A stretch of 38,960 nt of DNA from the IMG/VR virus record IMGVR_UViG_3300009646_000070. The stretch is one strand, 5' to 3'. The notes under the pieces were generated by a model, which had not been told where the DNA came from, did not search any database, and worked only from the letters and a program-made list of their open reading frames with translations. Source of the stretch: a virus. A program made the position numbers and the translations under genes. This document shows, one piece after another, positions 5,923 to 34,876 of this stretch (position 1 is its first letter; each line of letters starts with the position of its first letter).

Positions 5923-6116
5923 TACGCTCCTTGGTTTTCAAAGTGTTCATCGCAAAGATGAATGGTTTCGTTTCCAGACTGTACTGTATGGTTCCCGTCT
6001 TTGTCGCATTGTTCGTACTGTGCTCCATTCAAAATGTTGGCCCGGCGCTCCGATGGTAGCGATTGTTGCGAGAAAAAGGTATAGGCTTCCGACCGTAAAT
6101 ACGTTCAACCAGTGGC

Positions 6117-6586: not shown

Positions 6587-6925
6587 CGGAGGCGGTGAAC
6601 GCCGTCCATTAAACTCGGTAGGGGAGTCCTTCGACTCCCCATCCTTGTATGCAAACTACGCATTTGCGTAAAGCACCTTCGTGTTTTTCGCAGTTAGTTT
6701 TGAGAGTTGATTTCGGAAGTCTCCCACTCCCGGCTCAAATAAGCGCCGTTTCCTCTTACCCCGGTCGATGCCATTATACCCCCGTATGGTGGAGGTAGAG
6801 AGAATCGAACTCTCGTGTCGTTGTATAGTCATACGGCCTGTTTATGAGCGTACTTTATAATAGCTCTCGGCGGACCAGAACGCCGGGCTACTGCCAGTAC
6901 CAAGGGGCCTCACGGCCTCCACCAT
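6576..6925 (-). ncRNA. ssrA: Circularly permuted (two-piece) tmRNA; tag AKNTKVLYANA*
   Basis: Acceptor piece ends GAGAG-TTCGATT-CTCTC-TACCTCC-A-CCA (3' end 6787). It is followed by TAC and then the coding-piece 5' end GGGGGTA-TAATGGCATCGAC (6783). The acceptor stem has G3:U70 and A73. PK1 (GGGAG/CTTCC, GGGAG/CTCTC) precedes TAACT-GCG; tag frame 6691-6656. Outer ends are approximate. Confidence 0.9.
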
Positions 6926-12534: not shown

Positions 12535-12730
12535 CCATCCTCTTCAGCTTAGCTTGCAGTTTTTCTACACGATGTTCGATACGAGAAACCCATACAGTAC
12601 CAGAACGTTTCCATCCATGTGTCTCCCAAAAACAGGCCTCGTGTAGCCTAGCTTTCAGGCGCTCACGCCTGACGTAGTTTTTGATGATGGCCAACAGCGC
12701 ATTCTGCGTTAGGGGTTTAGACTTCGTCAT
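12521..12730 (-). CDS. Hypothetical protein
   Basis: RBS GGAG before MTKSKPL; overlaps the RNA ligase end. Confidence 0.55.
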   Translation of the reverse strand: MTKSKPLTQNALLAIIKNYVRRERLKARLHEACFWETHGWKRSGTVWVSRIEHRVEKLQAKLKRMDENY

Positions 12731-13949
12731 TGGACTCCTCCGCGTGATAGGTGCCCTGTGAGAAGAATTCTGCCCGCGCCGGACGCAGTATCTTCCAAAT
12801 AACTTTGGCGTAGTCCTTTCCATCGTACATCAAAAACAGTACAGGCGCTAGGAATATCATTTCGGGGCCTTCCGCCGGATGCTGCATCAACACCTGCTGT
12901 TTGAAAAACTCGGCCACGGCCTTGCGATTCCAATCTCCCCGGCTTCCGGCGATGCGAGCTAGCGCGATGCTCTCCTGCTCGATGTACTTGAACATCAGCG
13001 TGTAATATGCAATCTTGCCGGTCAGCCATTCGGTGAACTCAGGCGGAGTGAACGGAGTCAACGAGGCAACATCAATAGTCTTGCCTTGGCTCAGCGTCTC
13101 CCACACATCACGGTTCGTCATCCCAAACATCGCCCGGTGACTCAGCTTGTAGTTCTCGAACTTGATTTTGACGCGCAGAGGAGCCTTGTGAGGAATCGCC
13201 AGCGACCAGTTCAAAGGTTCCGACTCCTTCAATCGGATGTAGCCTCCGTGCGAAAGGAATTTAGCTACGTATCCTTCGCGGTTTTTGTCGTTCTCTTCCG
13301 CACACTGTGCAACAGTCTTGGTAAACAGGGGCACGAGTTCCAGACCGAAGTATCGTCCGTTGTCGAACGCCATTTCTTCGTAGGCCAACTCTTCGCCGGT
13401 CTCTTTGTAAATCACTGCGAAGAGCACCAGAGACTCGCGTTTGCCGTAGTCTACTACGATCTGGTTGCCCGGCATGATGATCTCCACCAGCAACGTTTGA
13501 TGGCGCGGCATCTGGAAGCAGGGCAGAGCTTGCAGGAAGGCAGTAGCCCACTTCGCTTGCTCGCTGTCGAAGGACCCGCGAGTCGCCACTTCCGGCGGAT
13601 TGTCCTTGTACTGGAAAATGACGCCCATGCTTCCGTCCATCTTCTCGGTGATCTCGATCTTGTTCTTGAGAGGATTCAACGGAAGGTTGTCCAGCATCGT
13701 CTCCGGGTAGCGCGTATCATTGATGTTGAAGAAGGCTTCCATTGGCCGGGCCACGATCTCCCCGGTCTCCCGGTCCACAATCAAACCACGGCAGCGGCGG
13801 AGCGTAACATCGTCATGCGTCTTCGTCATCGCTTCGCTCGTATAGTTGTATATGTCTAAAGGCCATTTGGGATGAGGGCGTTTAGAAACAAGCCCGTTAG
13901 AAACTCCTCCTTCTAGCTCATTTGCATCGACATATTGATTAAGTAGCAT
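12717..13949 (-). CDS. RNA ligase, T4 Rnl1-like
   Basis: RCRGLIVD...IVARP..AFFN, motif I TEKMDGS, ATRGSF.SEQA, EII.P.NQIVVDYG, EGYV, RVKIK..NY; RBS GGAGG before MLLNQ. Confidence 0.9.
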   Translation of the reverse strand: MLLNQYVDANELEGGVSNGLVSKRPHPKWPLDIYNYTSEAMTKTHDDVTLRRCRGLIVDRETGEIVARPMEAFFNINDTRYPETMLDNLPLNPLKNKIEITEKMDGSMGVIFQYKDNPPEVATRGSFDSEQAKWATAFLQALPCFQMPRHQTLLVEIIMPGNQIVVDYGKRESLVLFAVIYKETGEELAYEEMAFDNGRYFGLELVPLFTKTVAQCAEENDKNREGYVAKFLSHGGYIRLKESEPLNWSLAIPHKAPLRVKIKFENYKLSHRAMFGMTNRDVWETLSQGKTIDVASLTPFTPPEFTEWLTGKIAYYTLMFKYIEQESIALARIAGSRGDWNRKAVAEFFKQQVLMQHPAEGPEMIFLAPVLFLMYDGKDYAKVIWKILRPARAEFFSQGTYHAEESNDEV

Positions 13950-14334
13950 GTAACCTCCGAAGATGCAATGCACGTTTCTTCCATTGATGATTCCAACATA
14001 GAGTTTGAAGCCCTTTTTGACGCTCTCTATGGAAGAGCCAAGAATACAACTTCGAGCCATGCATTTGGCCTTTGCGTCGTTGGTATGCGCCATCGTTGTT
14101 GACATGATCTAATGTCAACATATCTAAATCGATTTGGCTACATCCACGCCAACAACATTTTGCTTCTCCGTCCTTTCCGTAACGAGCTAGAACAATGTTC
14201 TTTGTTTGTCGCTGGTGTCTGAAGTTTATTCGGCAGCGAGAGGCTTTTCCTTTAGATGTTCGGAGATATTTTTTCTGTGCGGCTTTTCCTTTAATGCCAC
14301 CATTGTATTTTCTAACTGTTTCTTTTCTGTTCAT
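13939..14334 (-). CDS. HNH-like endonuclease, family A copy 1
   Basis: KCCWRGC...DLDMLTLDHVNNDG...LQTLCWNHQWKK; AT-rich. Confidence 0.75.
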   Translation of the reverse strand: MNRKETVRKYNGGIKGKAAQKKYLRTSKGKASRCRINFRHQRQTKNIVLARYGKDGEAKCCWRGCSQIDLDMLTLDHVNNDGAYQRRKGQMHGSKLYSWLFHRERQKGLQTLCWNHQWKKRALHLRRLHAT

Positions 14335-18439: not shown

Positions 18440-18513
18440 TGGTTTCCGGGGCTGGACTCGAACCAACGTTCTCAGGTTCAAAGCCTGATGTCCTACCATT
18501 GGACGACCCGGAA
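18440..18513 (-). tRNA. tRNA-Gln(UUG)
   Basis: TTCCGGG/CCCGGAA acceptor, TCAGG-CT-TTG-AA-CCTGA, TTCGAGT loop, CCA. Confidence 0.93.
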
Positions 18514-18518
18514 AAAAT

Positions 18519-18605
18519 TGGTGGGGTGTAGTGGAGTCGAACCACCTGCCCACAAGTGAGCACGGGTTTACAGCCCGCCCTAGTCGCCAGTGCCAGTCAC
18601 ACCCC
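18519..18605 (-). tRNA. tRNA-Tyr(GUA)
   Basis: GGGGTGT/ACACCCC, GCGGG-CT-GTA-AA-CCCGT, long variable arm, CCA. Confidence 0.93.
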
Positions 18606-18616
18606 GAAAAAGAAAG

Positions 18617-18923
18617 TGCTGAGGGTAGATGGAGTCGAACCACCACAGAGGCTAGGCGCTGTACACACGGAGCTAGCCTCCATCCGCTTTTATTGCTACT
18701 GGATTTCACAAGGTTCCTGCCTCGCCTCAGCGCATAACTGGCGGCTTCGAGGAATGGGATTCGAGACCCACTATACGAAACAATTACCGGGCTTAATCCG
18801 GCACGTAACCGCATACCGAACGCAACTGCGTTGTGCCTATCCACAAGGCGCTCCAAGGATTTGAGGTCTTACGTCTATCAGTAGCCTATTTAGCGTTGCA
18901 TCTGCCGATTCTGCCATACCCCC
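18617..18923 (-). ncRNA. tRNA-Leu-like 5' and 3' ends bracketing a large structured insert (RNA-A)
   Basis: 5' GGGGGTA-TG-GCAGAATCGGCAGATGC (Leu-type D arm) pairs with 3' TACCCTC-A after the T arm GGTGG-TTCGACT-CCATC; ~230 nt lie between them. Confidence 0.6.
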
Positions 18924-18931
18924 GAAAAGGT

Positions 18932-19065
18932 TTTGGGGAAAGATGAGTGGTGAGGATTTCGCTTTCGGTTTCGTCCCGGCCTATCCTCTAGGGCTAGGGC
19001 GAAGCTGCGCCGTTGATTCGAGCCTAAGCGATGTCTTGCCCGTACGGGCCTCACCTTCCCCCAAA
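18932..19065 (-). ncRNA. Structured RNA between tRNAs; candidate YrlA-type Y RNA
   Basis: 11-bp closing stem TTTGGGGGAAG/CTTTCCCCAAA plus GTGAGG/CCTCAC; a T-like loop GGCTCGAATC precedes a GGCG/CGCC hairpin and a D-like TAGCCCTAGAGGATAGGC. Confidence 0.45.
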
Positions 19066-19067
19066 CT

Positions 19068-19152
19068 TGGTGGCGATAGAGGGAGTCGAACCCACACGGT
19101 TTTACCCACTGGTTTTTGAAACCAGCGCGTCTGCCAGTTCCACCATATCGCC
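19068..19152 (-). tRNA. tRNA-Leu(CAA)
   Basis: GGCGATA/TATCGCC, CTGGT-TT-CAA-AA-ACCAG, variable arm, CCA. Confidence 0.95.
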
Positions 19153-19161
19153 TGAAAGATT

Positions 19162-19244
19162 TGGTACGGGGAGAGGGCATCGAACCCCCATGGTTGCCCA
19201 CTGGTTTCTAAGACCAGCGCGTCTGCCAATTCCGCCATCCCCGC
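19162..19244 (-). tRNA. tRNA-Leu(UAG)
   Basis: GCGGGGA/TCCCCGT, CTGGT-CT-TAG-AA-ACCAG, CCA. Confidence 0.95.
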
Positions 19245-19246
19245 AC

Positions 19247-19503
19247 ACGAGAACATTCGGCAGAGTATCGTTACTCTTTTCTCGCAGTTCCTACCGGATT
19301 TGAAAAAAGAGAGTATGGATTTCACTTTGTTCCTGCCTACGCCTAGCCCGCATGGGGTTCGGACCCATGTTCCTGCGGTATATTCTGCCCGCAGTGTGCT
19401 TCCTGCATCGCCGGTTTGCCCCGGCTAGCCTATGTCTACACTAGCGGTAAGGTTTCGGTCTTACGTCTCTCACACTTTTTGATACTCTGCCGAATGCTCT
19501 CGT
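19247..19503 (-). ncRNA. Structured RNA closed by 23-bp inverted repeats (RNA-B), paralogous to the RNA-A insert
   Basis: IRs 19247-19269 / 19481-19503 (22/23); shares a 12/12 and a 20/23 motif with RNA-A; internal tRNA-like fold at 19343-19428. Confidence 0.6.
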
Positions 19504-19581
19504 TCTGTGGCAGCCAGGCGGCCGCCTGAGAGGCAAGCTCAAAACAGAGCTGACGGAAGCTCTCGATAGTAAGCCAATTGA

Positions 19582-19788
19582 TCATTGACCAGAAAGCTTG
19601 CGTATGGTCTCGCCGTAGTCCCTGACGGCACGGCTGACTGCCTCTGCGACAACTGGATTCCGACGCTCTGGAATGCCCGGGATGGTCAGGGTGGCGATTA
19701 TTGGATCTGCGTAGAATTGATACTTCAAGGCCACCTCACCGCCCACAGTGATTTCGAATCGCTCAATCTTTCTTATTCTTATTTCCAT
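19582..19788 (-). CDS. Hypothetical protein
   Basis: RBS GGAGAGG before MEIRIRK. Confidence 0.6.
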   Translation of the reverse strand: MEIRIRKIERFEITVGGEVALKYQFYADPIIATLTIPGIPERRNPVVAEAVSRAVRDYGETIRKLSGQ

Positions 19789-20101
19789 CGCCCTCTCCTT
19801 CGTTGGCTTGGTTATCCTACTCCTCCAGCAACTCGGAAATCCTCTTTCTCTCAATCCACTTAAACCCAGCATAGCTCGTCACTAAAGCGATGTCCACGTC
19901 TCCGCCCGCGGTTTTTGAAGTTGCGACGATCATAACTTCCCATGTTACCATACCTCCAATCCCTTGTCAACTGGTTTTTTTTGGGCGGTCGGAGTCGGAT
20001 ACTCCGAAACAGCAGCCTCGCATCGGCCAACGCTTTACGTGGCCTTCGCCTGCAAGTCCATCGCATCTGCTGTCAGCTTGCAGCCTCCGCCCAAATCTAT
20101 T

Positions 20102-20176
20102 TGGTGCGCCCGGATGGATTTGAACCACCGGCTTCCTGCTTGTAGGGCAGGCACTCTTCCGCTGAGTTACGAGCGC
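20102..20176 (-). tRNA. tRNA-Val(UAC)
   Basis: GCGCTCG/CGGGCGC, CCTGC-CC-TAC-AA-GCAGG, CCA. Confidence 0.92.
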
Positions 20177-20177
20177 A

Positions 20178-20271
20178 TGGCGGAAGGTGCTGGATTTGAA
20201 CCAGCGGGTCCCTTTGAGGGGGACCAACGGTTTAGCAAACCGCCGCATTCGACCATCTCTGCCAACCTTCC
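20178..20271 (-). tRNA. tRNA-Ser(GCU)
   Basis: GGAAGGT/ACCTTCC, GCGGT-TT-GCT-AA-ACCGT, long variable arm, G73, CCA. Confidence 0.95.
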
Positions 20272-20277
20272 GTAAAC

Positions 20278-20349
20278 CGCGCAGTGCGGGAGTCGAACCC
20301 GCCAGTAACGGCTTTGCAGGCCGTTGCCTAGCCGATTGGCTTCCTGCGC
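20278..20349 (-). tRNA. tRNA-Cys(GCA), atypical
   Basis: ACGGC-CT-GCA-AA-GCCGT with canonical arms; G7-A66 mismatch, G discriminator, no encoded CCA. Confidence 0.75.
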
Positions 20350-21389
20350 GTAGTGAACGCCACATTTCGTTTCGGACGCTCGGGAGCGTGAGCCAAATTT
20401 TCAAGCGGCACTCGCTCGATAGGAATGTTCTGAATAGCCGGACCGGGCACGTTCAAACGTCCGGTAGGGCTAGGAGCGTCCATGTCCAACTTGCTACGCC
20501 AGCCAAGGAAGATTGCATGACGTGGTTTAACCTTGGCACCATGTGGAAAGTGTTTGTACTTCATGATGCGACCGTTGTAGGCCAGTGGGTTCGCTTGCAG
20601 TTCTTTCCACATCTTGCGTCGCTGGCGCATCGTGAATCCGACGCCGACCTCGAACTCGACTTTGCTCTTGCAATCACGTACTAGAAACCGGCCAAGCAAA
20701 GGCAGAGGCACCTTACCAGCTTTGGACAGGGACCTCTTCGTATGGCCGAGGGCGTTCTTGAACGCAGCATTGGCGTTGTGATAGAGGGGTAGAAAATCAT
20801 AGACCTCGGCGTCTGCGTCAACAAACCTCTTCACCTTTAGCAGCCAGCCTTCCCGCTCTGTTGACCGGCCATGCTTGTACGGACCTTGCGGGTCCCGGAT
20901 CATCACGCCCTCGCCGCCATGGGCTAGAACGTCTTTCTCGAAGGCCCGCAACTCAGCCACACAGAATACGAGGGTCTGGCGGACAGCTTTAACACTGAAA
21001 GACAACGGACCCATAGCAGTAACAGCATAGCAATAATCTTCGTACCGTTGCTCGAAAGGCTTGTCCTCTACCTTGTCGAATACGTAAAAGTCAACGTCTG
21101 CGCCACGGGAATCATGTTCACTCATGACGATGGAAAGCGTGAGGCAGTAGCAATCCTTTGCATTCGGGTCGCCGTAAATAAGCTCTCCGTCCAGACCCGG
21201 CTCTGCCCTGCGAAGTTTTTCCTGCACAAATTCGTTCGGAATCAGATTCATACTGCGACTCATAACAACCGAGGCAGTATTATCTTCCTTGTGAATAAAC
21301 GCACGAATCCCGTCCAGCTTCACAGAGGCATAGACCGGGTAGCGTAACTTTTTCACATTGCTTGTCTGTGTTGCCAACATCACCTGCAT
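20328..21389 (-). CDS. ATP-dependent DNA ligase
   Basis: ASVKLDGIRA (motif I), LDGEL, FYVFD, GGEGVMIR, LLKVK, OB-fold VGVGFT, KYK...KPRHAIF. Confidence 0.93.
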   Translation of the reverse strand: MQVMLATQTSNVKKLRYPVYASVKLDGIRAFIHKEDNTASVVMSRSMNLIPNEFVQEKLRRAEPGLDGELIYGDPNAKDCYCLTLSIVMSEHDSRGADVDFYVFDKVEDKPFEQRYEDYCYAVTAMGPLSFSVKAVRQTLVFCVAELRAFEKDVLAHGGEGVMIRDPQGPYKHGRSTEREGWLLKVKRFVDADAEVYDFLPLYHNANAAFKNALGHTKRSLSKAGKVPLPLLGRFLVRDCKSKVEFEVGVGFTMRQRRKMWKELQANPLAYNGRIMKYKHFPHGAKVKPRHAIFLGWRSKLDMDAPSPTGRLNVPGPAIQNIPIERVPLENLAHAPERPKRNVAFTTRRKPIG

Positions 21390-21398
21390 ACTTCCTCC

Positions 21399-21554
21399 CT
21401 ATGCGGTCCGGCGGCCGTCACGAAGCCAGAAGGTGCGCCGGGCAATCTGTTTTTGCACTTCCGGGTCATTCTCTTTTAGGATGACTTGCAGCAGCTTTTC
21501 CGCAAACTCATCCTCTACAACTTTCACTGCGCGAACCCATTCAGTCAGCAGCAT
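21399..21554 (-). CDS. 51-aa hypothetical protein
   Basis: MLLTEWVRAVKVVEDEFAEKLLQVILKENDPEVQKQIARRTFWLRDGRRTA*; bridges its neighbours. Confidence 0.5.
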   Translation of the reverse strand: MLLTEWVRAVKVVEDEFAEKLLQVILKENDPEVQKQIARRTFWLRDGRRTA

Positions 21555-22287
21555 AACCGCTCCTCTCTTTCGCGTGCGTCATATGGTAGCCATGGCAAAG
21601 GTTGCAGGGATACACTCGGAAAATGATGCCGTGTTCCTTTCCTTGGCGCTCAGCGGCGCTCTCTGCTTCGTGGCGCGTCGAATACCGCATCTTACTTCGG
21701 CATGACTTCCACTGCAAATAGGCGCGTGATTTCATCCCTCTCCAACATTCGGGAAGAGTGATGGTCAACTTTCGACCCCGGCGCACATAAGCGCGTTTTT
21801 GAATGGCGTCCAGAGTCGCCCGCTCCAAATGGCCGTTCCATTGTTCCAGACCTTCCTTGCACATTTCCACGATTTCCCGGACCTCATCCTCGAGCGGCGC
21901 ATCCTTGGAAGTGATGCCGAGGGCGTAAACGGCGTAGCCGAGGGCTTCGCCGCGTGATGCACACTTGGGCTGTGATTCTTTCCCGTACTGAATCAGAGTT
22001 TCGAGGGCGCAACGGGCCACGTCACGCGGATTGTAGGCCGGCCCTTTCCCATCGACCGCCGCGGGCAGCAATTCCCATTCTCTGCGGTAGTTCATGACCG
22101 CATCAATATGTTTGCAGGCCATTCCCAAACCTTGCAGCCGGGCGACCCAATGCGGGCAAGAGCAATGCCAGTTTCCTTGCCTGTCCATAGCCACGATGTA
22201 AGGCGGAAGGTCGGTGTTTCGGAAACTGTCAACCGAGTACCGCTCCATCCAACCCAATCGAATGCTCGAATTTAATTTTCTAATCAT
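21541..22287 (-). CDS. SWIM-domain protein with C-terminal CxxC-H module (possible internal start at MKSRAY)
   Basis: WHCSCPHW...CKHID; C-terminal YPCNLCHGYHMT; internal RBS GGAGAGGG before MKSRAY. Confidence 0.7.
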   Translation of the reverse strand: MIRKLNSSIRLGWMERYSVDSFRNTDLPPYIVAMDRQGNWHCSCPHWVARLQGLGMACKHIDAVMNYRREWELLPAAVDGKGPAYNPRDVARCALETLIQYGKESQPKCASRGEALGYAVYALGITSKDAPLEDEVREIVEMCKEGLEQWNGHLERATLDAIQKRAYVRRGRKLTITLPECWRGMKSRAYLQWKSCRSKMRYSTRHEAESAAERQGKEHGIIFRVYPCNLCHGYHMTHAKERSGYAAD

Positions 22288-22327
22288 GGTGGTAGGGCCT
22301 CCCAGCCCTAGACTTTTTCATTCTAAT

Positions 22328-22356
22328 AGAATAGCGCAAACGCATACGCTTGTCAA
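22328..22356 (-). promoter_or_regulatory. Sigma70-type promoter
   Basis: TTGACA-N17-TATTCT. Confidence 0.7.
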
Positions 22357-22392
22357 ACAGAATTTCACTCTGCATGTAACAGACCTCGACGG

Positions 22393-22677
22393 ATGGCCAA
22401 GTGGTCAAGGTCTGTAGCCCACATAGTGAAGCCTGCCATGGTTTTTCAAGAGCCACAACTTTCTCCCGTACCGGATACGCGCTTTCAGTGCCGTCCCGGG
22501 CCTTTACCAAAAGTAGGCTACGGAATTGACCGAATAGATTCCGCCAAAGGTTATACATTTGGCAACATCCGACCTTGTTGTAAAGTTTGTAACTTCGCAA
22601 AAAACAACCTTTCAGAAAATGCTTTTCAAGATTGGATTGTCAGAGTTTACAAACATTGGGCTTCCGTTCCTCGTTAA
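22393..22677 (+). CDS. HNH endonuclease, family B copy 1 (antisense to the operon, N-terminus degenerate)
   Basis: GIDRIDSAKGYTFGNIRPCCKVCNFAK. Confidence 0.65.
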   Translation: MAKWSRSVAHIVKPAMVFQEPQLSPVPDTRFQCRPGPLPKVGYGIDRIDSAKGYTFGNIRPCCKVCNFAKNNLSENAFQDWIVRVYKHWASVPR

Positions 22678-22953
22678 TTAACTGCTAGTCCGCTCCGTTT
22701 TCACCAACAGCTTATAAGCGAACCAAAGCGGCTCTTGCGCTGCCAAAGTTTCCGCAACAGTTCGTGTATGAAGTATGATGCACTCAGCATTCAAATGGCC
22801 AAGGGCATTGAGAACGATGTTCTTCCCGCCTCTGAAAAGTAGATTGACCCATTCTTCCTTTTCTTTTTGATCTTCAAGAAAAGGGTTACGTGCCCATTCT
22901 TCAAATTGCTCAATTTCCTTTTTGAGCCTATCAAACTTCGATTCAATACTCAT
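22678..22953 (-). CDS. Hypothetical protein
   Basis: 91-aa ORF with RBS GAGGA. Confidence 0.6.
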   Translation of the reverse strand: MSIESKFDRLKKEIEQFEEWARNPFLEDQKEKEEWVNLLFRGGKNIVLNALGHLNAECIILHTRTVAETLAAQEPLWFAYKLLVKTERTSS

Positions 22954-23242
22954 TTCATCCTCTTTTTCTGCGCAGTTCTAAGTAAATCAGGAACAATAAT
23001 GCAATGACGGCGCAAAGTAGATTTTCCATCGTTTTCTCCCTTCGCAGAACACTCGACTGTGCCGAATGCTCTGCGAAGCCGGGGGAGTTAAGTTGTCCCC
23101 CGACTTCCTATTAAAATGTGAAAGAGAAAAAAGGTTAATTTTAATTCTTCATGGGCGCACCCCTTTCTTTTTTCTGTTAAAATTGTGTCTCAATTGGAGT
23201 AAAGTTTGTTAGCCGGGTGGAATCACCCCCTTTCTAGTTTGG

Positions 23243-23746
23243 TTACTCGTTCAACATGCAATCATGCAAATCGTAGTAATGCTCTTCAGCGCGAGCCATC
23301 ACACGTTCTGCGCACGGATCGCAGTATGCGTCATCTTCCGACGTGTTGAAATCCTCGTACCACAGGCCGTCATAGAAATAACCAGCCACGATGCGGGTGT
23401 AGCAGTGCTGGCAGATGCGAGGCTCCTGAATCAGGATGCTGCAATAATCGCAATAGTCGCCGTTGTTCTGGCAGGTGCATCCATTCGGAAACATCTCGGC
23501 GGCCATGCTGGAGTTGTCCCACAGGGCCATTTCATCGCTGCCACAGTACGGGCAAACGAAGTACCACGCATCATCAAAGTCCTGAGTCTCAACGACGCCA
23601 TGCAGCAACACATGCTTGGCATCGCGGTAAAAGAAAACGGTGTTGCACACTTTGCAGCGTGCGCTGCATTTGCACTCATTGTGATCGTGCAGGCCATGCT
23701 TGCAATTGCATTCAAGTTTACAAGGAACTGCATATAAACTTCTCAT
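23243..23746 (-). CDS. Cys-rich protein with multiple CxxC motifs
   Basis: CNCKH, CSARCKVC, CPYCG, CTC...CDYC, CQHC, CDPC; ATG overlaps the upstream TAA. Confidence 0.7.
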   Translation of the reverse strand: MRSLYAVPCKLECNCKHGLHDHNECKCSARCKVCNTVFFYRDAKHVLLHGVVETQDFDDAWYFVCPYCGSDEMALWDNSSMAAEMFPNGCTCQNNGDYCDYCSILIQEPRICQHCYTRIVAGYFYDGLWYEDFNTSEDDAYCDPCAERVMARAEEHYYDLHDCMLNE

Positions 23747-23964
23747 TAAGCTCTCCCGGCGCTAGCCGCCAATTGTTTGAATTGAAACGCACGTCCCTCT
23801 TGAACAGTGCGGGGCATATAGAATGCCTTGTTTTTCTGCGCTATTTCGTAGGAAGGAAACAACACCGTTCGATCTTGACCGGCTGGAATCCTTTCAACGA
23901 AAGGCTCCACATCGCTCAAGCTCACGTTCCGAAAATCCTTTGCAGTCAGATTAGGTTTCAACAT
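23746..23964 (-). CDS. Hypothetical protein
   Basis: RBS GAGGAGG before MLKPNL, immediately after twister 1. Confidence 0.65.
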   Translation of the reverse strand: MLKPNLTAKDFRNVSLSDVEPFVERIPAGQDRTVLFPSYEIAQKNKAFYMPRTVQEGRAFQFKQLAASAGRA

Positions 23965-23981
23965 GATGCCTCCTCGCGGGA

Positions 23982-24062
23982 CCGGGCTTACAACCGGCCT
24001 GCCGCATTGCAGCACTCATAGACTAAGACATGCTAGCCGGTGTATGAATGCTGTGTTCTGCG
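23982..24062 (-). ncRNA. Twister ribozyme 1 (permuted, P1 closed as a hairpin)
   Basis: CGCA-GA-ACA-[P1 hairpin]-CAA-TGCG-GC-AG-GCCGG-T-TGT-AAG-CCCGG; T1 ACA/TGT. Confidence 0.85.
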
Positions 24063-24296
24063 TTACTTGCGAGGTTTTAAGAAGATGATGTACAGTTCAT
24101 AGAATGATAAAGCTACAACTAATACTATTAACCACCCTTGAACTGTAATACAGTCATTAAAAAAATCATTGGTTGTAAACAAATGATGATGATAGCGCCA
24201 CAACCATGTTTGTACCCAGTCTAAGAATGTTATGATTGTATTCTCGATTGGGAAAGTCTCGTGAAGCCAGTCCAAAAAGTTTATGATATAATTCAT
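24063..24296 (-). CDS. Small membrane protein
   Basis: C-terminal hydrophobic helix WLIVLVVALSFYELYIIF; lies between twisters 2 and 1. Confidence 0.65.
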   Translation of the reverse strand: MNYIINFLDWLHETFPIENTIITFLDWVQTWLWRYHHHLFTTNDFFNDCITVQGWLIVLVVALSFYELYIIFLKPRK

Positions 24297-24320
24297 TGTA
24301 CCCTCTCATGAAGAGCGTGG

Positions 24321-24378
24321 CCGGGCTTACAACCGGCCTGCCGCATTAAACCCGCACAGTATGCGGGTTCCGTCTGCG
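24321..24378 (-). ncRNA. Twister ribozyme 2 (T1 pseudoknot mismatched)
   Basis: CGCA-GA-CGG-AACCCGCA-TACTG-TGCGGGTT-TAA-TGCG-GC-AG-GCCGG-T-TGT-AAG-CCCGG. Confidence 0.75.
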
Positions 24379-25011
24379 TTAATGGATATAATATGATACA
24401 TTCTTAACTGTGTTTGACCAGCAAGCACGGCATGTATCACAACGTCCACCTTGATTGGGAGCCGGACATGCAAAGCCGATAGGAGCGGAATAACGCTGTA
24501 CAGTAGAGGTTGTTAATTGAGTAAGGCCCTTTGGCTTGCAACCATGATCTATGATATAAGCTGACAACCGGATTGTCAGGTTAGTAGGGATTGTTCCACC
24601 CTCAGCAAGAAATTTTCTCACTACATTAAACTCCTTGGTGGGCATCCAATGCTGGCACCAAGGGGTTGCATTAACAAGAGAAATTATCTGCCGTAGATGT
24701 GCTACGCTCTGAAGATCGCCTGCATCATGCCATCTAAAGTACGACTTGCCTTTTAACATTGTAACCATAGCCTCTTGCCATTGTGGATGCTGAAGTGCTT
24801 TCAATTTGAAAGCACGAAAAGGATCAACATTTTTTGCAAAAGCTTTTGCATAGCCCTTCCTTGCATAGCAATGAGCGCAAGGCGAGTTAGGATTACTGCG
24901 GAGAGTTTTTCCCACATGGCAGGAATCACAGGGCAGTGTGTATGACCCGCACGGCAACTTATTGTTAACGTAAATCTTTCCTACAATCTTTTCAGCTTGT
25001 TTCTTAGTCAT
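24379..25011 (-). CDS. Phage GP88-like Cys-rich protein
   Basis: C..C.VG..L...PNSPC..CYARKG, FRWHD.GDLQS, HWMPTKE, NLTIRLS, CPAP.QGG.C..CRACW; RBS AGGAGG. Confidence 0.8.
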   Translation of the reverse strand: MTKKQAEKIVGKIYVNNKLPCGSYTLPCDSCHVGKTLRSNPNSPCAHCYARKGYAKAFAKNVDPFRAFKLKALQHPQWQEAMVTMLKGKSYFRWHDAGDLQSVAHLRQIISLVNATPWCQHWMPTKEFNVVRKFLAEGGTIPTNLTIRLSAYIIDHGCKPKGLTQLTTSTVQRYSAPIGFACPAPNQGGRCDTCRACWSNTVKNVSYYIH

Positions 25012-25025
25012 GTTCCTCCTAATTG

Positions 25026-25106
25026 CCGGGCTTACAACCGGCCTGCCGCATTACAACACTCATAGACTAGGACACGCTAGCCAGTGTATAGATACTGTGT
25101 TCTGCG
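25026..25106 (-). ncRNA. Twister ribozyme 3
   Basis: CGCA-GA-ACA-[P1]-TAA-TGCG-GC-AG-GCCGG-T-TGT-AAG-CCCGG. Confidence 0.87.
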
Positions 25107-25110
25107 AATG

Positions 25111-25431
25111 CTAATCCCACCAAAGACGAAGTTTTCCACCAATTATGTTGTATTCATCTTCCCCAAGCTCGTGTTCTTCAATAGAGTTTGGTTCGACATA
25201 AACACACACACTGTATTCGCGGGCAAGCAAAACGTCGCCTTTGATGCGTCCTAACAAGTCCGCTGTAAAGTTGTTATAGCCATCCGGGACAGCCTTTGCC
25301 ATGATCTTAACTGCCACGTCGGACGGCACACTTTGAAATGCACGAAAATGAAGATTACGTGTTTCTTCAGTATATGCAGCAATTACTTCATCTGCCACAG
25401 TTTTGTACTTATTTGGTATCCTTGTAACCAT
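25111..25431 (-). CDS. Hypothetical phage protein
   Basis: RBS GGAGGTG; ends LRLWWD; lies between twisters 4 and 3. Confidence 0.7.
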   Translation of the reverse strand: MVTRIPNKYKTVADEVIAAYTEETRNLHFRAFQSVPSDVAVKIMAKAVPDGYNNFTADLLGRIKGDVLLAREYSVCVYVEPNSIEEHELGEDEYNIIGGKLRLWWD

Positions 25432-25448
25432 GTATCACCTCCGCGTAG

Positions 25449-25533
25449 CCGGGCTTGTAACCGGCTTGCCGCATTATCGCACCCGCCATGAATTATACGC
25501 CTAGTAGTAGAGGCTAAGGTGCGTCACTCTGCG
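25449..25533 (-). ncRNA. Twister ribozyme 4
   Basis: CGCA-GA-GTG-[P1 CGCACC/GGTGCG]-TAA-TGCG-GC-AA-GCCGG-T-TAC-AAG-CCCGG. Confidence 0.87.
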
Positions 25534-25544
25534 AACTCTATGAC

Positions 25545-25670
25545 TTACTTAGTATATTTCTTCCCTGTCTCTGCAAATATTTCGCCTCTCAGGGTTGCTT
25601 CATCGAAACGTGGATACTGGCAGGGAAATGCTTTCGTTCTCCATGTATCCTTTGTTGTATCTGTTTTCAT
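25545..25670 (-). CDS. 41-aa hypothetical protein
   Basis: MKTDTTKDTWRTKAFPCQYPRFDEATLRGEIFAETGKKYTK*; only ORF between twisters 5 and 4. Confidence 0.5.
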   Translation of the reverse strand: MKTDTTKDTWRTKAFPCQYPRFDEATLRGEIFAETGKKYTK

Positions 25671-25691
25671 AAATCACCCTATGATACGTGG

Positions 25692-25771
25692 CCGGGCTTG
25701 TCACCGGCCTGCCGCATTAAGGCGGGGCATACCGCAACATCTTGTATGCCGGACTCCGCCTTGACTCTGCG
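25692..25771 (-). ncRNA. Twister ribozyme 5
   Basis: CGCA-GA-GTC-[P1 AGGCGG/CCGCCT]-TAA-TGCG-GC-AG-GCCGG-T-GAC-AAG-CCCGG. Confidence 0.88.
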
Positions 25772-25842
25772 CTATTTCCGAATCTCCAACAGCGTGCCAT
25801 CGGGTCCAAATCGACCGCGATACAATCGTGGCCGGGCATAGG

Positions 25843-26166
25843 CTACCTCACTTTCACCACGATGCCGTTCTTCAATTCGGCCTGCGCATACCACGTATGC
25901 GCCGCAGGAGGATACGTTCCGCTATACGTTGGTGGTTGCGGCCGGGCTGCCCAATAGTGTGGACCTTCCAAGCAAGTCGTGCCTTCAGTTGGTTCGTTGC
26001 CACCAAATGGTCCGGGCTGATAGATGCGCACAGGACGCGCCAGTGCAGCTTCGGGGCCAACAGTAAGAGCAAACACCGGATCGGCGATTGCTTTCAAATG
26101 ATCGTTCCAGTTTTTCACGGCTTCCTTGAGTTGCTTTTTCGTTTTGAAATTGATTGTAGTATACAC
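25843..26166 (-). CDS. Conserved-looking phage hypothetical protein
   Basis: GTG start, RBS GAGGT; YTTINFKTKKQLKEAV...YQPGPFG...LEGPHY...HTWYAQA.LKNG.VVKV. Confidence 0.7.
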   Translation of the reverse strand: MYTTINFKTKKQLKEAVKNWNDHLKAIADPVFALTVGPEAALARPVRIYQPGPFGGNEPTEGTTCLEGPHYWAARPQPPTYSGTYPPAAHTWYAQAELKNGIVVKVR

Positions 26167-26191
26167 GGGCCACCTCAGCGGTTTTAAATTG

Positions 26192-26249
26192 CCGGGCTTC
26201 GGACCGGCTAGCCGCATTAGACCCGCACAGTATGCGGGTGCCGTCTGCG
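26192..26249 (-). ncRNA. Twister ribozyme 6
   Basis: CGCA-GA-CGG-C-ACCCGCA-TACTG-TGCGGGT-C-TAA-TGCG-GC-TA-GCCGG-T-CCG-AAG-CCCGG; T1 CGG/CCG. Confidence 0.88.
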
Positions 26250-26279
26250 ATGTTCAAAGGCGCGATTGGAATTTCTAAG

Positions 26280-26474
26280 CTAATTATTGGTTCGAATTGC
26301 GCTCAATGTTCGCGTGATCTCACGCGCCTGTACGTTTTCCAACAACTTAACGGAAGCACTGACTATTCCAATCTCGCGCATGGTATTTTTTGCGCTAAAT
26401 TTACTGCGCAGCATCATGTTAAGTCGTTGAATTTGCATCTTTTCTTCTGGACTAAGAACTGGTTTGTTTTTCAT
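26280..26474 (-). CDS. Hypothetical protein
   Basis: RBS GGAG before MKNKPVL. Confidence 0.55.
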   Translation of the reverse strand: MKNKPVLSPEEKMQIQRLNMMLRSKFSAKNTMREIGIVSASVKLLENVQAREITRTLSAIRTNN

Positions 26475-27484
26475 AAAGTCTCCGTTACTTCTTAGCGTTT
26501 CGCACGCCATGAATTGCAGCCGCCCGCCGTTGCAATTGTACCGGCTACTAAAGCAGAGATAATCACACCGTCATGTAAGTCGCTCGCAGCATTGGAGTTA
26601 TGTGGTCATCGTCCCACCCGGACTGACTAGCTCCAATGCTCTGAGCGACCGACATTGGAAATATCGGCCACCCAAACTCTTTTATGCACGCATCTAAGGT
26701 GTTTTTCCTTAGCGGTAACTCAGGATGGCCTGTAGCGTTCCTTCCTCGTTTGTTCCCTTCCACTCTTGCCTACTCTATTCGGTTGTCTCTCCGAAATACA
26801 CTCAGCAAGTCGTGGGGTTCAGTCTAACCAACGGAAGATTGCACCATCATGGTATTTGTTTTTCCGAGTTCTTTGGGTTCTCACTCCCGTCTTTCTCTTT
26901 CAATTGCCTGTGAGTTTTTCTTTCTGGCCTTGGTTGCTCGCCCTATCTCAGTTCAGGTATCACGGGGGTCGCTGCTTTCTCGTATTTCGTTCCTTAGCTA
27001 GCTTCCGCTCCCCGTTTTTCTTTGAAGGGCTTCTTCCTCCGCTTTCTTCCGCTGGCTTTCTCAAACACCCTTTACTACTGCATTCCGCCTGCCAATGTGT
27101 GCAATTATATGGGCAAGTCGTTGATATAGAAAGAAATATATTGTTTGCCGGTCGGCCAGCAGGAACGTAATCACATAAGGCCCCGGCCTGTGTGTGGGTT
27201 TCCCCTCACTGGAATGTTACCGTTCGGGTATATTTGTCCATATATTTGCATGGCGAGCCGGGAATGTTCCCGCTCGGGAGCCGGGGATTGTCAATGTAGG
27301 CCAGACGCTTTCTGTTACTGCCCTACTTAGTCTAGCCTCTCGGCTGTTTAAATTCAATAGGTTATCCTGTGGAAATGGGAGGCTAGGACAGCCTCTAATA
27401 GTGACCTTTTGTTTCCAATGCTATTTATTGAGTTAGGTATAATAACTATATTTGCTTTGTTTTGTTTAAGATAAAAAATAGTGC

Positions 27485-27513
27485 TTGACATTGGATTAAA
27501 TCTGATGTAAACT
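27485..27513 (+). promoter_or_regulatory. Sigma70-type promoter at the strand switch
   Basis: TTGACA-N17-TAAACT downstream of an AT-rich tract. Confidence 0.7.
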
Positions 27514-27857
27514 AGCCTTTACGACGCCAAACGTAATGACCAAAGAGTATTACTAAGTCTTTGACTGTAACTCATAGTAATGACTGAGTTTAGCAACGAA
27601 TTAACTCTGTCTTGCTACGTAAGTGACTGTGCCTGCTAGGTTTAACTATGTCAGACAGCATCATGCGTCGTTTTATACACTTACCACTATCCTATACTGA
27701 TACGGTACAGGATACGAGCAGGATCTGGCTGAGTTCGGCGCTTGACCTGCCTATGCAATTGCAAACTCAGTCAACTCCGGCATTCCTGCGCCGGCCGGAA
27801 CTAAGGGACCGAAAGACTTCTAACTTTGGCAGTCGGATTGCAGGTTAGTATGGTACT

Positions 27858-28178
27858 ATGATGAAAAAGATGAAAAACACACAGATCGAATATAAAGAAA
27901 CAGTTCAAAGAATCAAACAAGCGGGCCTTTACCATTTTCGGCCCCTTGCACCCCGGGAATTAGGCTCTCTAGAGTATATAGACCTACGAAACGACCCGCA
28001 ATCCGTGAAGGTAGGCGACCGTGTTTATTGCACTGTCTCTGCTTGCTATGGATGGTCTACGGTTGTAGAAGTCAAGGGCCACGGTAATGGGCTGCGCGTC
28101 AAGACGGACTCTTTTAGAGGTTGGGGCTACGGGCACAACTTCACCCGTAAGCCCCCAGAGTATATGACTAAGGGCTAA
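27858..28178 (+). CDS. Hypothetical protein
   Basis: 106-aa ORF; VKVGDRVYC...G.STVVEV resembles an SH3/KOW-like barrel. Confidence 0.6.
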   Translation: MMKKMKNTQIEYKETVQRIKQAGLYHFRPLAPRELGSLEYIDLRNDPQSVKVGDRVYCTVSACYGWSTVVEVKGHGNGLRVKTDSFRGWGYGHNFTRKPPEYMTKG

Positions 28179-28345
28179 CAAAGGTCCGCCGCGCGCTGGG
28201 GTTTAGCTATCCCGAAAGTGGCACGTTTTGATTCTAACTAGGGGGTGGGGCCTTCACCATTTTCGGCCCCTTGCCTGAGTAAGGGTGAAACCACCCAGTG
28301 TGGTCTTCTGCACAGTGTGAGGAATCGCTCACCTGAAGGAGTATA

Positions 28346-28633
28346 ATGTCTAATAAACTAGTCAGTCTAAAGGAGATATTGTCCAGTCCGGCCTTGCGTC
28401 GCAAGATTATGATGCGGGCTATGCGTCGCGAGATTATGGTGCGGGCTATTGTTGCGACACAGGCTAGGGAGGGCATTGTAACTACGTTGGCTCAGGCTGA
28501 GGCAGCTTACGATAAAGTTCAATTACAATTGACTGCAAAGCCTTTCGACACACCGGCCTGTGAAGGCGACGGCTTTACCGAGAGACAAGCCACCATTACC
28601 TCCGAGGCAGCCAATGAGAAGCCAAGTATATAG
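28346..28633 (+). CDS. Hypothetical protein
   Basis: RBS AAGGAG before MSNKLV. Confidence 0.6.
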   Translation: MSNKLVSLKEILSSPALRRKIMMRAMRREIMVRAIVATQAREGIVTTLAQAEAAYDKVQLQLTAKPFDTPACEGDGFTERQATITSEAANEKPSI

Positions 28634-28880
28634 TTTTGCTGGAGTTATCTGGCTCACGCTGCTGTCTAAATGGGAAGCCATGTTGTTTTTGGCTATCCTA
28701 CATCGTCTGGCGACGCACAACGCACGCTAGGCCCCTCCACGCCTCACGGCGACCCCTTCTAATCGCTTTCCCCGCCAGTTTGCACAATGAGCAGCCGCCC
28801 CGGAAAAGCCGTAGTCTTCCAGTGAGAGACAGAGCCGGGGAGCGGAGTCATGCGTCGATTGCTCCGGCCATTCTACGCAA

Positions 28881-29280
28881 GCTAGCCAGCCTTTACAACG
28901 TCATGCGGAGTCAGGCGTAGCTATAGCGCCAGTATCATACATAAACCACGTCAGAACAACGTAATGCGTCGTATGGCGTCGTCGCCGGGCGTGCTTGACA
29001 TTATTTGTCATAGTCATACTTCCTAGCCTAACGCCAGACGTAGCAGGGCTACATCGCTCCATTCAGCAGCGTAATTACATCATTTTACAGCGTTTACAAC
29101 GTCTGGCGTCAGCGATGCACGCATCGCCGTCGTCGAACGGCGTCATGCGTCGTATGTCGTCGTCCGGCGACGTGGCCATCGCTTAGCCTACACACGCTCT
29201 ATGTCTACGCTCACCGGCGGCGCAAGGCAACGCATGACGTTGTAAGTACCTCGTAATGCGTCGTTTACGCTGGCTAGACA
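28881..29280. repeat. Non-coding CG-rich region with nested inverted and direct repeats
   Basis: 15-bp perfect IR 28893-28907/29231-29245; direct repeats ATGCGTCGTATG(G/T)CGTCGTC at 28964 and 29145; CGTAATGCGTCGT at 28960 and 29252. Confidence 0.7.
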
Positions 29281-29943
29281 CTTTGTGTCACTGGCAACGT
29301 ATGGCGTCGGGGCGGGCCCTACTTTGTGACACTTTGGGGCACCACCGGCGGGGATTCCTACCCCTATGACATTTTTGGTCAGTGCCGCCCGGCGGACTGC
29401 CATACTCATACTACGCAAGACGTAGCAAAAACGTTGTCCAACATGGGTCCCATCCATAGCAAAAATTACATCATGATATTCCCTAACGCAAAATCCCCCG
29501 ACTGAGGGGGTTATGTCGAACGCTGTATACTTCGCCTGCGGAGCCAAGAACTGCACACTAAACCTGAGAGGTTTATCGAGCAGGAACACTTTAGGGGCCC
29601 CTTTCCCGGCGATCCCTGCCACGCAGAGCGACGCCGGACGTTGCAGCCTACGTCCATGGGTCCCATGCGCAGAAAAAACGAAGTACGGCGCTGTCCTAAC
29701 GCCGGATGACTGCTTTGTCAACCTTAGACGGGGAGATTGTCAACTTATAGCTGATATAACAGACAGCCGTAGGAAATTGCACGAAATGACTGTTATGATG
29801 GGCATTCCTTCTCACTGGTAGGGGGGGGGTTCCTTCTCCGGGGAGCCGAAGGGTGGGAGAATCTGCTTATTGTGTGCGGGTATAACAAACAGACCCGGCG
29901 CGGGCGCTTGTTTCAGCTTTTCAGCGTTTGGTGAAATTAAGTA

Positions 29944-29972
29944 TTGACTCTTTTTCCGTTGTATGATAAGCT
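29944..29972 (+). promoter_or_regulatory. Sigma70-type promoter
   Basis: TTGACT-N17-TAAGCT with extended TG. Confidence 0.65.
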
Positions 29973-30068
29973 GGGGGAGTATATAAAATTGGGACTTATA
30001 TACATGACTCCCTCACGTTGAAAACAAAGGAAATTTGGCAAGCGAATCACCTACAAGGAGTTGACCGC

Positions 30069-33490: not shown

Positions 33491-33565
33491 TGGAGCGTGT
33501 GGCGGGACTCGAACCCGGCCTCTTCAGTTTGGAAGACTGAGGCACAACCTCTATACCACGCCCAC
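33491..33565 (-). tRNA. tRNA-Gly(UCC) with two acceptor-stem mismatches
   Basis: TCAGT-CT-TCC-AA-ACTGA, T arm, U73-CCA; 5' GTGGGCG vs 3' CACACGC gives G4-A69 and C6-A67 mismatches. Confidence 0.75.
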
Positions 33566-33688
33566 TTACTTGTGGAGTTGCCAGCGAAGATACTTCAACT
33601 TGAGCATGACGAGGATCACACGCAAGTCGGTGAAGTCGATGCACACTTTTAGCCAGATCAAGCGGAGATAAAGACGAATACTTTCCAT
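33566..33688 (-). CDS. 40-aa hypothetical peptide
   Basis: MESIRLYLRLIWLKVCIDFTDLRVILVMLKLKYLRWQLHK*. Confidence 0.35.
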   Translation of the reverse strand: MESIRLYLRLIWLKVCIDFTDLRVILVMLKLKYLRWQLHK

Positions 33689-33743
33689 CAGTCACCTAGT
33701 CTTCCGGCGTCATCGTGATCGTTGCAACAAGTTATGGTCGGCT

Positions 33744-33893
33744 TCAGCGGCAAGGGCTGGCCTGTGCTGCCGGACGCTCGCGGTCGGGGCATACTATGGT
33801 GAGGAAACGTTCGAGGTTTTCAAAGCGTTCTCTGAGAGCTTCGAGAACCTGTGTCTGCTCTTTCGTTACTTCCGTGAATCCGAAATCTGACAT
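33744..33893 (-). CDS. Short ORF resembling the first half of Acb2/Tad1-type helical hairpin proteins
   Basis: FTEVTKEQTQVLEALRERFENLERFLTIVCPDRER, then diverges and stops; RBS GGAGGA. Confidence 0.4.
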   Translation of the reverse strand: MSDFGFTEVTKEQTQVLEALRERFENLERFLTIVCPDRERPAAQASPCR

Positions 33894-33909
33894 ACGATCC
33901 TCCGAAAAT

Positions 33910-33984
33910 TGGTCAGGGCTGAGGGAGTCGAACCCCCGACCTCGTGGTCCCAAGCCACGCGCCATACCGCTTGGCTAAGCCCTG
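33910..33984 (-). tRNA. tRNA-Pro(UGG)
   Basis: CAGGGCT/AGCCCTG, CGTGG-CT-TGG-GA-CCACG, CCA. Confidence 0.93.
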
Positions 33985-34213
33985 TTATTATACTGGATGA
34001 GAGCGCATCCTAAAGTACACAATTCCTACGACTGCACATGCACAGAAGAATGCTCCCAAACTTGCTCCTGCTAAAGCAATTACCACGGGTTCTCCTATCG
34101 CAGTAGTCTATCTAACTCTGCCAAGGTCAGCTTTTCAAGCGGCGACCCGGCGACCCGGCGCTGAGGTCAAGCCCGCGTCTGTCGGCCTCCCGCCTCTCTT
34201 TCCATCAACCTAC

Positions 34214-34242
34214 AGATTACCATACCCTTCGGCGTATGTCAA
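34214..34242 (-). promoter_or_regulatory. Sigma70-type promoter
   Basis: TTGACA-N17-TAATCT with extended TG. Confidence 0.7.
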
Positions 34243-34507
34243 GCCTTTTCTGTGGTGTGACTGCAAGCCTTTTGTGCTGTGCGGATGCAAGTCTTTCCTG
34301 TTCATTTTTCTCGGATGTTCACACATAATGAACGTTCATGGGTGCGTGAACGCCGGACGATGCATGAACACGCAAGAGCTTTGCAAGTCAGGTTTTGACG
34401 AAGTTAGCGTTGTCTGGCTTCGTAAGACTAAGTAAAGACAGTATGTTAGCTACCTACTGACTCATATATTACCTAGTCTGGTATTTCGCTTTGCGTCGTT
34501 AAAGGCC

Positions 34508-34536
34508 AGTTTACTCCTTTTTTAGCCCGTTGTCAA
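34508..34536 (-). promoter_or_regulatory. Sigma70-type promoter
   Basis: TTGACA-N17-TAAACT. Confidence 0.65.
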
Positions 34537-34800
34537 GCAAAAAGTGAAGGTGTGCCAAAGAAAAACTATATTTGCTTTAGATTCATGGGTATGCCCGGAA
34601 AACAGTAGGATAGGAACCCCGATTTATGGAATAATACATAGAGAGAAGAAACGAAAGTGGTTGTACACAAGGGAAGCAAGAGAATCAGGGAAACCAAGGT
34701 AATCAATTTCAGTTGCAGTTGAACGATCCCCAGCCTACTGTGCCGGGATGAGCAAGGGAGCCGCAGGCAGTGATGCTTTGCGGCTCTTTCGGTTTTTCAT

Positions 34801-34876
34801 GGGCTTGTAGCTTAATCGGGAGAGCACCTGCCTTGCACGCAGGGGGTTGCAGGTTCGATGCCTGTCGGGTCCACCA
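34801..34876 (+). tRNA. tRNA-Ala(UGC)
   Basis: GGGCTTG/CGGGTCC with G3:U70, CCTGC-CT-TGC-AC-GCAGG, A73-CCA. Confidence 0.93.

Follow-up and report, generated by a model that had tools for sequence, protein, structure and literature searches.

Self-cleaving ribozymes in phage gene arrays

The twister class of self-cleaving ribozymes is said to have been described by Roth et al. in 2014. Cleavage by members of the class is established to leave a 5'-OH and a 2',3'-cyclic phosphate, and we know of no cofactor that twister requires. Six twisters, tw1 to tw6, lie at positions 23982-26249 of a 38,960-nucleotide stretch of viral DNA, IMG/VR virus record IMGVR_UViG_3300009646_000070 (the window, hereafter), where they occupy the spacers of a small-gene operon on the minus strand. 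Among described ribozymes, glmS resembles the arrangement predicted here in that its self-cleavage leaves a 5'-OH on a downstream coding RNA, and this end sets the fate of the RNA; glmS destabilises its mRNA through RNase J1. Unlike twister, glmS needs a metabolite cofactor. Twisters are also used in the engineered Tornado system, in which a twister-flanked RNA with 5'-OH and 2',3'-cyclic phosphate ends is joined by RtcB.

Arrays of self-cleaving ribozymes are known from prophages, in which multiple hammerheads flank single genes or short gene blocks; single-gene mRNAs and circular RNAs were already raised as ideas for those arrays (Perreault et al., 2011; PMC3088659). Self-cleaving ribozymes of bacteria frequently occur close together and near phage genes, and processing of polycistronic RNA has been suggested for both hammerhead and twister, according to a 2019 review (PMC6765202). 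Other than for glmS, the purpose of bacterial and phage self-cleaving ribozymes is largely elusive (PMC6765202). The window shares with the hammerhead arrays the placement of coding-strand self-cleaving ribozymes between small, variable phage genes. It differs in that the ribozymes are twisters rather than hammerheads, a single class supplying the copies in all six consecutive spacers, and in that the array is characterised here from its sequence.

Clustered twisters are likewise not confined to this locus. When IMG/VR was scanned with the 3' core pattern, 108 contigs were returned, including L005 and L035 with six Twister-P5 copies each and contigs of L045, L012 and L071 with four or five. 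Complete phage genomes of 45-50 kb carry five to seven twisters in one 3-4 kb cluster, and these often abut or overlap the upstream stop codon. Within 2.9 kb, the L012 array of a complete 44.9-kb genome with terminal repeats (G003:C1:15208-18086) has seven Twister-P5 copies that exceed the threshold and one further weak match, which makes it denser than the array in the window. The clusters of L005, L012, L035, L045 and L071 have the same organisation as the window array, with four to seven copies in 2-4 kb, co-oriented with small open reading frames (ORFs) and often abutting a stop codon. However, the phages that carry such clusters are unrelated to the window phage and share no proteins with it, except for a GP88 homologue near the twisters of L046. 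Their T1 pseudoknot is mostly GUG/CAC, whereas the window uses four different T1 pairs. In L005, several ORFs end in a TGA made of the T1 triplet GUG plus A.

The original prediction was aware of no earlier description of a gene-by-gene array of this kind. The implied novelty fails against the hammerhead arrays published in 2011 (PMC3088659) and the four to seven clustered twisters in complete IMG/VR phages. The array at this locus is real and well conserved, but both its ribozyme class and its kind of arrangement are known. What it adds are the recombination footprints described below (a chimeric tw2, a converted tw1 and gene differences by whole units) and a well-sampled natural test system.

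Identity of the six ribozymes

All six elements were identified as Twister-P5 (RF02684, clan CL00120; gathering threshold 37.6 bits) by cmscan against Rfam 15, all on the minus (coding) strand and with E values of 1.5e-9 to 1.3e-3. Four of them (tw2, tw4, tw5 and tw6) score above gathering. The other two, tw1 (37.0 bits) and tw3 (32.1 bits), fall just below it because of their long P1 inserts of 44 nt each. A second covariance model, R1, built from 26 short-P1 twisters (alignment A2), gave 43-67 bits for all six copies and found no seventh twister across the 38,960 bases. No other ribozyme class reached gathering score in the window, and none appeared at E up to 1 in 20000-30000.

Each copy reads, 5' to 3', CGCAGA, a 3-nt T1 strand, the P1 hairpin, the cleavage site N|AA, UGCG, GC, a 2-nt linker, GCCGG-U, the 3-nt T1 partner, AAGC and CCGG. 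All of these core words are present in six of six copies, as are P2 (CGCA/UGCG), a closed P1 hairpin beside the cut site and P4 with the loop word AAGC, and the predicted fold of each copy comprises P2, the P1 hairpin and P4. The P1 sequences vary among copies yet pair, and four copies have long P1 inserts (44-48 nt). The core words AAGCCCGG and AATGCGGC occur eight times each, against 1.3 and 1.9 expected, and a count of eight was never reached in shuffles. The six predicted cuts coincide with positions of AATGCGGC, the conserved word that begins with AA. The window thus has the core words of RF02684, its P2/P1/P4 helices, both pseudoknots (T1 and T2), the closed P1 and the cut 5' of AA, at scores of 32-55 bits. 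It departs from the family in the four long P1 inserts and in the mismatched T1 of tw2, and cleavage is predicted here.

In the order of transcription, the first copy is tw6 (26192-26249; RF02684 52.2 bits, R1 61.7 bits), with T1 CGG/CCG and a predicted cut at 26219|26218. It is followed by tw5 (25692-25771; 43.0 and 51.6 bits), which has a long P1, T1 GUC/GAC and a predicted cut at 25719|25718, and by tw4 (25449-25533; 52.3 and 57.0 bits), also with a long P1, whose T1 is GUG/UAC with one G.U pair and whose cut is predicted at 25476|25475. The P1 of tw3 (25026-25106; 32.1 and 43.2 bits) is long and weaker; its T1 is ACA/UGU and its predicted cut 25053|25052. The chimeric copy tw2 (24321-24378; RF02684 55.2 bits) has the mismatched T1 strands CGG and UGU and a nominal cut at 24348|24347. 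The last copy, tw1 (23982-24062; 37.0 and 47.9 bits), again has a long P1, with T1 ACA/UGU and a predicted cut at 24009|24008. The original prediction of six twisters on the coding strand is borne out by the Rfam matches and by the anatomy of the core words in all six copies, and it had placed the cut sites correctly.

Pseudoknot covariation and the chimeric copy

The T2 pseudoknot is GC/GC in all six copies. T1 pairs in five of the six through four different triplet pairs: ACA/UGU twice, GUG/UAC, GUC/GAC and CGG/CCG. The T1 covariation had been recognised beforehand and holds as claimed in these five copies; the unpaired T1 of tw2 (CGG against UGU) had been passed over without comment. When 26 twisters of the window and of viral contigs are aligned, pairing in T1 reaches 97% and both sides change at all three pairs, with tw2 alone contributing the unpaired cells. 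Covariation over the whole structure is 0.364 versus 0.108 in shuffles, none of 500 of which reached 0.364, and slid controls gave at most 0.125. The elements are genuine type-P5 twisters by sequence, structure and covariation. A DNA-only repeat of the integron or MITE kind was considered as the main explanation and was rejected because the pairs covary.

Identity to tw6 covers 29 of 31 positions in the 5' half of tw2; the 3' half matches tw1 and tw3 at 27 of 27. Judged by these matches, tw2 is a chimera of tw6 and tw1/tw3 with its junction within the shared core. The Rfam covariance model leaves pseudoknots unscored, and the 55.2 bits of tw2 are blind to its T1 mismatch. High-throughput work on natural twisters found that the pseudoknots tolerate imperfection least: with two imperfections in a 3-bp pseudoknot the mean cleaved fraction falls from 0.76 to 0.55, and with three it is 0.28 (PMC11662667). 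Since pseudoknot imperfection lowers the cleaved fraction in natural twisters without abolishing it, tw2 is probably weakened rather than dead.

Placement in the operon

The transcript reads A, tw6, B, tw5, C, tw4, D, tw3, E, tw2, F, tw1, G, H, with all genes on the minus strand and all ribozymes co-oriented with them. The spacers are 82-172 nt long and mostly occupied by the ribozyme and a ribosome-binding site. The upstream stop codon lies 0 nt from tw1 and tw2, 4 nt from tw3, 11 nt from tw4, 71 nt from tw5 and 30 nt from tw6, and the next start codon follows 14-25 nt past each ribozyme, behind a clear Shine-Dalgarno sequence. The claim that the six spacers are consecutive holds provided that the 41-codon ORF C (25545-25670) counts as a gene. 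Promoter- and terminator-like matches are no more frequent in the array than in shuffles.

On the same strand downstream lie genes for a DNA ligase, tRNAs, a T4 Rnl1-like RNA ligase, a nuclease, helicases, a primase-helicase and RecA. This long leftward unit has the array at its head and belongs to a large phage, whose public contigs reach 92,932 bases. The phage context of the window includes RecA, primase-helicase, DNA and RNA ligases, Mom, GroEL, ten tRNAs and a tmRNA. With several coding-strand ribozymes flanking single genes, six of them in six spacers, and with this phage context, the locus has the layout of the ribozyme-punctuated type of phage operon.

Variation among near-identical contigs

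The phage is widespread in public assemblies, with protein D indexed in 140 blocks and protein G in 122, and at least 22 near-identical contigs, drawn from many metagenome samples, share the same gene order. Ten compared contigs, 99.7-99.8% identical, keep all six ribozymes, and tw2 to tw6 are invariant among them. No deletion or rearranged variant, for example one without E-F, was found among the 22 contigs. The 6.3 kb compared contain 24 variable sites, 12 of which fall within 23997-24135, the end of gene F plus tw1.

The polymorphism in tw1 comprises three population alleles. In eight of ten contigs, four sites in the 3' part of tw1 carry the tw3 base, a sign of gene conversion; the two copies, about 95% identical, form direct repeats flanking E-tw2-F. 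Two contigs have a C-to-U change in the P4 of tw1, and the base before the cut is C in the window and U in most other contigs. The five polymorphic sites of tw1 are two changes from G-C to G.U, two positions of P1 that are unpaired and the nucleotide preceding the cut, so that no pair is broken and no core base is hit. Seven sites clustered at the 3' end of gene F (24081-24135, minus strand) set the window apart from all ten near-identical contigs, and this cluster, next to the variable tw1, looks like a short imported tract.

Conservation in diverged relatives

Homologues of gene D with twisters on both sides are found in L124 (about 70% identical), L130 (63%) and L128 (about 60%), at the same junctions as tw4 and tw3. 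These twisters have different P1 hairpins and compensatory P4 helices, and in L128 and L130 a compensatory T2 change from GC/GC to AC/GU has occurred. The combination of the same junctions with drifting sequence and compensatory changes indicates that the RNA fold is conserved. Family membership, placement and conservation of the array are what the sequences show.

The relatives differ from the window by whole units. L130 reads B', twister, D', with unit C absent between the B and D homologues; its B homologue (32% identical) is directly upstream of the twister and the D homologue. L124 reads D', twister, H', twister, and has no E, F or G. The D homologue of all three relatives has a TAG stop codon that reaches into the initial bases of the twister downstream (UAGCAGAG; L124:553-560, L130:1443-1450 and L128:1790-1797), an overlap that appears to shorten P2 to 3 bp. 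No ribozyme was found beside the closest GP88 relative with context (L110, 58%) or the most distant D homologue (L129, 39%); thus, the array is not tied to the GP88 or D genes. A blastn search of 22000-28000 against GenBank phages gave no match, and no relatives were found in IMG/VR via the DNA ligase.

Proposed role and competing explanations

The explanation that we favour, with a probability of roughly 80%, is that the twisters in the spacers of this leftward, probably early, small-gene operon cut the polycistronic RNA co-transcriptionally into mostly single-gene units. Each time RNA polymerase passes a spacer, the ribozyme would fold (P2, P1, P4, T1 and T2) and cut itself 5' of the conserved AA. 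The expected units are 500 (B), 243 (C), 423 (D), 705 (E) and 339 nt (F) long, plus a downstream piece from G onward. At its start, a unit would carry a 5'-OH and a leader of 27 nt that includes the P4 hairpin and lies 14-25 nt ahead of the next start codon; it would end in the P1 hairpin with a 2',3'-cyclic phosphate, 0-71 nt past the stop codon (0-11 nt in units C to F). The expression and decay of each small gene could in this way be uncoupled from those of its neighbours. Given the broken T1 of tw2 and its probable poor cutting, E and F may partly stay one 1,044-nt unit. Cleavage in vivo, the end chemistry at this locus and an effect on expression are what we infer from the ribozyme class and its placement.

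Several observations weigh against this proposal. The Rfam scores of tw3 and tw1 are below gathering, the base of P1 in tw3 is weak, and the T1 of tw2 consists of two non-pairs and one wobble. Unmasking of ribosome-binding sites by cleavage was considered and rejected: across the six units, processed and unprocessed RNA have nearly equal mean probabilities of being unpaired between -15 and +3, and this equal predicted accessibility gives no sign of a translational benefit. Whether a 5'-OH stabilises or destabilises the message would also depend on the host. In Bacillus, RNase J1 reportedly degrades the 5'-OH product, according to a study of glmS mRNA destabilisation.

Three other explanations compete with processing of the transcript. 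The main selected role could lie at the DNA level, with the 27-81 nt ribozyme repeats serving as portable homology for the swap, gain or loss of units and RNA cleavage being secondary. Such exchange is consistent with the tw6/tw1-3 chimera whose junction is in the shared core, with the conversion of tw1 towards tw3, with the concentration of half of the variable sites in 23997-24135, with the direct repeats around E-tw2-F and with relatives that lack C (L130) or the E-F-G block (L124). However, the compensatory changes in P1, P4, T1 and T2 show selection on the RNA fold and not on DNA identity, and the twisters at the same junctions in the relatives have little sequence in common beyond the core. 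None of the 22 contigs is a deletion or rearranged variant. On its right side, the E-F-G difference does not end at a twister, and no integrase-type gene was seen among the ORFs scanned. A DNA-level role as the main one is highly improbable. The earlier proposal that the repeats make the genes exchangeable cassettes survives in part: the chimeric tw2, the converted tw1 and the unit-wise gene differences beside twisters agree with it. Alternatively, cleavage could be conditional, with a terminating ribosome covering the 5' strands of P2 and T1 so that upstream translation sets the fraction of RNA that is cut. The stop codons 0, 0, 4 and 11 nt from tw1 to tw4 would suit such coupling, as would the TAG overlaps in L124, L128 and L130 and the abutting stop codons in L071, L012 and L005. 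This argument is purely positional, however; tw5 and tw6 are 71 and 30 nt from the stop codon, and tight packing is sufficient to explain the abutment. Translation-coupled cutting is very unlikely.

A further suggestion of the original prediction was that the units could circularise. In the form considered here, a host ligase of the RtcB type would join them end to end into circular, translatable mRNAs, or the reverse reaction of twister would do so wherever a complete core is rebuilt by the two ends of a unit. The twister ends, 5'-OH and 2',3'-cyclic phosphate, are the substrate of RtcB (PMC8782182). Unit F would begin with the 3' half of tw2, which is identical to that of tw1 (27 of 27), and end with the 5' half of tw1, so that its ends are those of an exact nicked tw1; the uncut E-F unit has the same ends. 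In units B, C, D and E, by contrast, the T1 strands at the two ends are mismatched. Neither an RtcB nor a Pnkp-like protein was found among 40 ORFs scanned with Pfam and PHROGs, or by motif checks of the ORFs beside the RNA ligase. The sole RNA ligase in the window is T4 Rnl1-like, a type that requires 5'-phosphate and 3'-OH ends. Circular or spliced products of the hammerhead arrays were sought and not detected (Perreault et al., 2011; PMC3088659). Circularisation thus lacks support, with no RtcB or Pnkp found in the window and only one unit (F, or E-F) whose ends could rebuild the core, and it is very unlikely as an account of the array. Unit F and uncut E-F would be the best candidates for circles, and there is only a slight chance that they are a natural counterpart of the engineered twister circles. 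The Tornado design has a stem that unites the ends, whereas in the window only the ends of unit F or E-F can pair, as a ribozyme core. The T4 Rnl1-like RNA ligase itself (462 aa; 12717-14105, minus strand; Pfam RNA_lig_T4_1, PHROG 562) is encoded about 10 kb downstream on the strand of the array.

The locus leaves the elusiveness of ribozyme purpose as it stands, but it is a good test bed for it. The phage is abundant (proteins in more than 120 assembly blocks), the six-copy array is fixed and the expected fragments have defined sizes. As a copy that is probably weakened naturally, tw2 provides an internal control, and alleles as well as diverged same-junction relatives are available for comparison. 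Additionally, the footprints of exchange between copies bear on the gain and loss of small genes in phage early regions.

Genes of the array and neighbouring features

Gene E (24379-25011, minus strand) is the only gene of the array with a family assignment; the remaining ones are orphans. It encodes 210 aa, belongs to Pfam GP88 (PF17338, E 2.7e-23), has 206 homologues and ends in a stop codon that abuts tw2. Upstream of tw6, gene A (26280-26474, minus strand; 64 aa) is an ORF with a ribosome-binding site that is called in public contigs; it has no match in Pfam or PHROG. Gene B (25843-26166, minus strand; 107 aa) starts with GTG 25 nt past tw6 and is separated from tw5 by a gap of 71 nt. The end of gene B is overlapped by a 40-codon ORF in another frame (25772-25894, minus strand), whose stop falls exactly on the first base of tw5; it may reflect a frameshift, an additional small gene that overlaps B, or chance. 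The coding status of ORF C (minus strand; 41 aa), between tw5 and tw4, is uncertain, as it is listed in one public gene call (L134) and absent from other calls. Gene F (24063-24296, minus strand; 77 aa) has a stop codon that abuts tw1, and gene G (23746-23964, minus strand; 72 aa) begins 17 nt past tw1 and opens the uncut remainder of the transcript (G, H and beyond).

Gene D (25111-25431, minus strand; 106 aa), between tw4 and tw3, is a conserved orphan with nine homologues. A confident AlphaFold2 model of its product (mean pLDDT 92.6, pTM 0.85) has three helices and a beta sheet, and the C-terminus is a conserved RxWWD motif. No functional match was found in Pfam, PHROG or Atlas. No hit at E up to 0.001 came from Foldseek searches of PDB and BFVD, and the best VIA-align Z score was 4.0.

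GP88 homologues are also found in other settings. In L111-L114 (e.g., L111:7260-10639), a T4-like phage with Gp23, a GP88 homologue about 41% identical to gene E directly follows an RNA ligase (PHA02142/RNA_ligase) and lies near an AAA_33 kinase, which hints that GP88 may belong with RNA repair genes. No ribozymes were found in L111 and L114. The unrelated viral contig L046 carries twisters at 3107-3161 and 3990-4050, 1.4-2.3 kb upstream of a GP88 homologue (5441-6040; 28% identical to gene E). Genes of the GP88 class may be among those with a tendency to occur close to ribozymes.

Outside the array, ARAGORN identified ten tRNA genes, at 18440-20350 and 33491-34876, none of which has a suppressor anticodon. 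A permuted tmRNA is encoded at 6656-6849 on the minus strand (Rfam, 64.8 bits).

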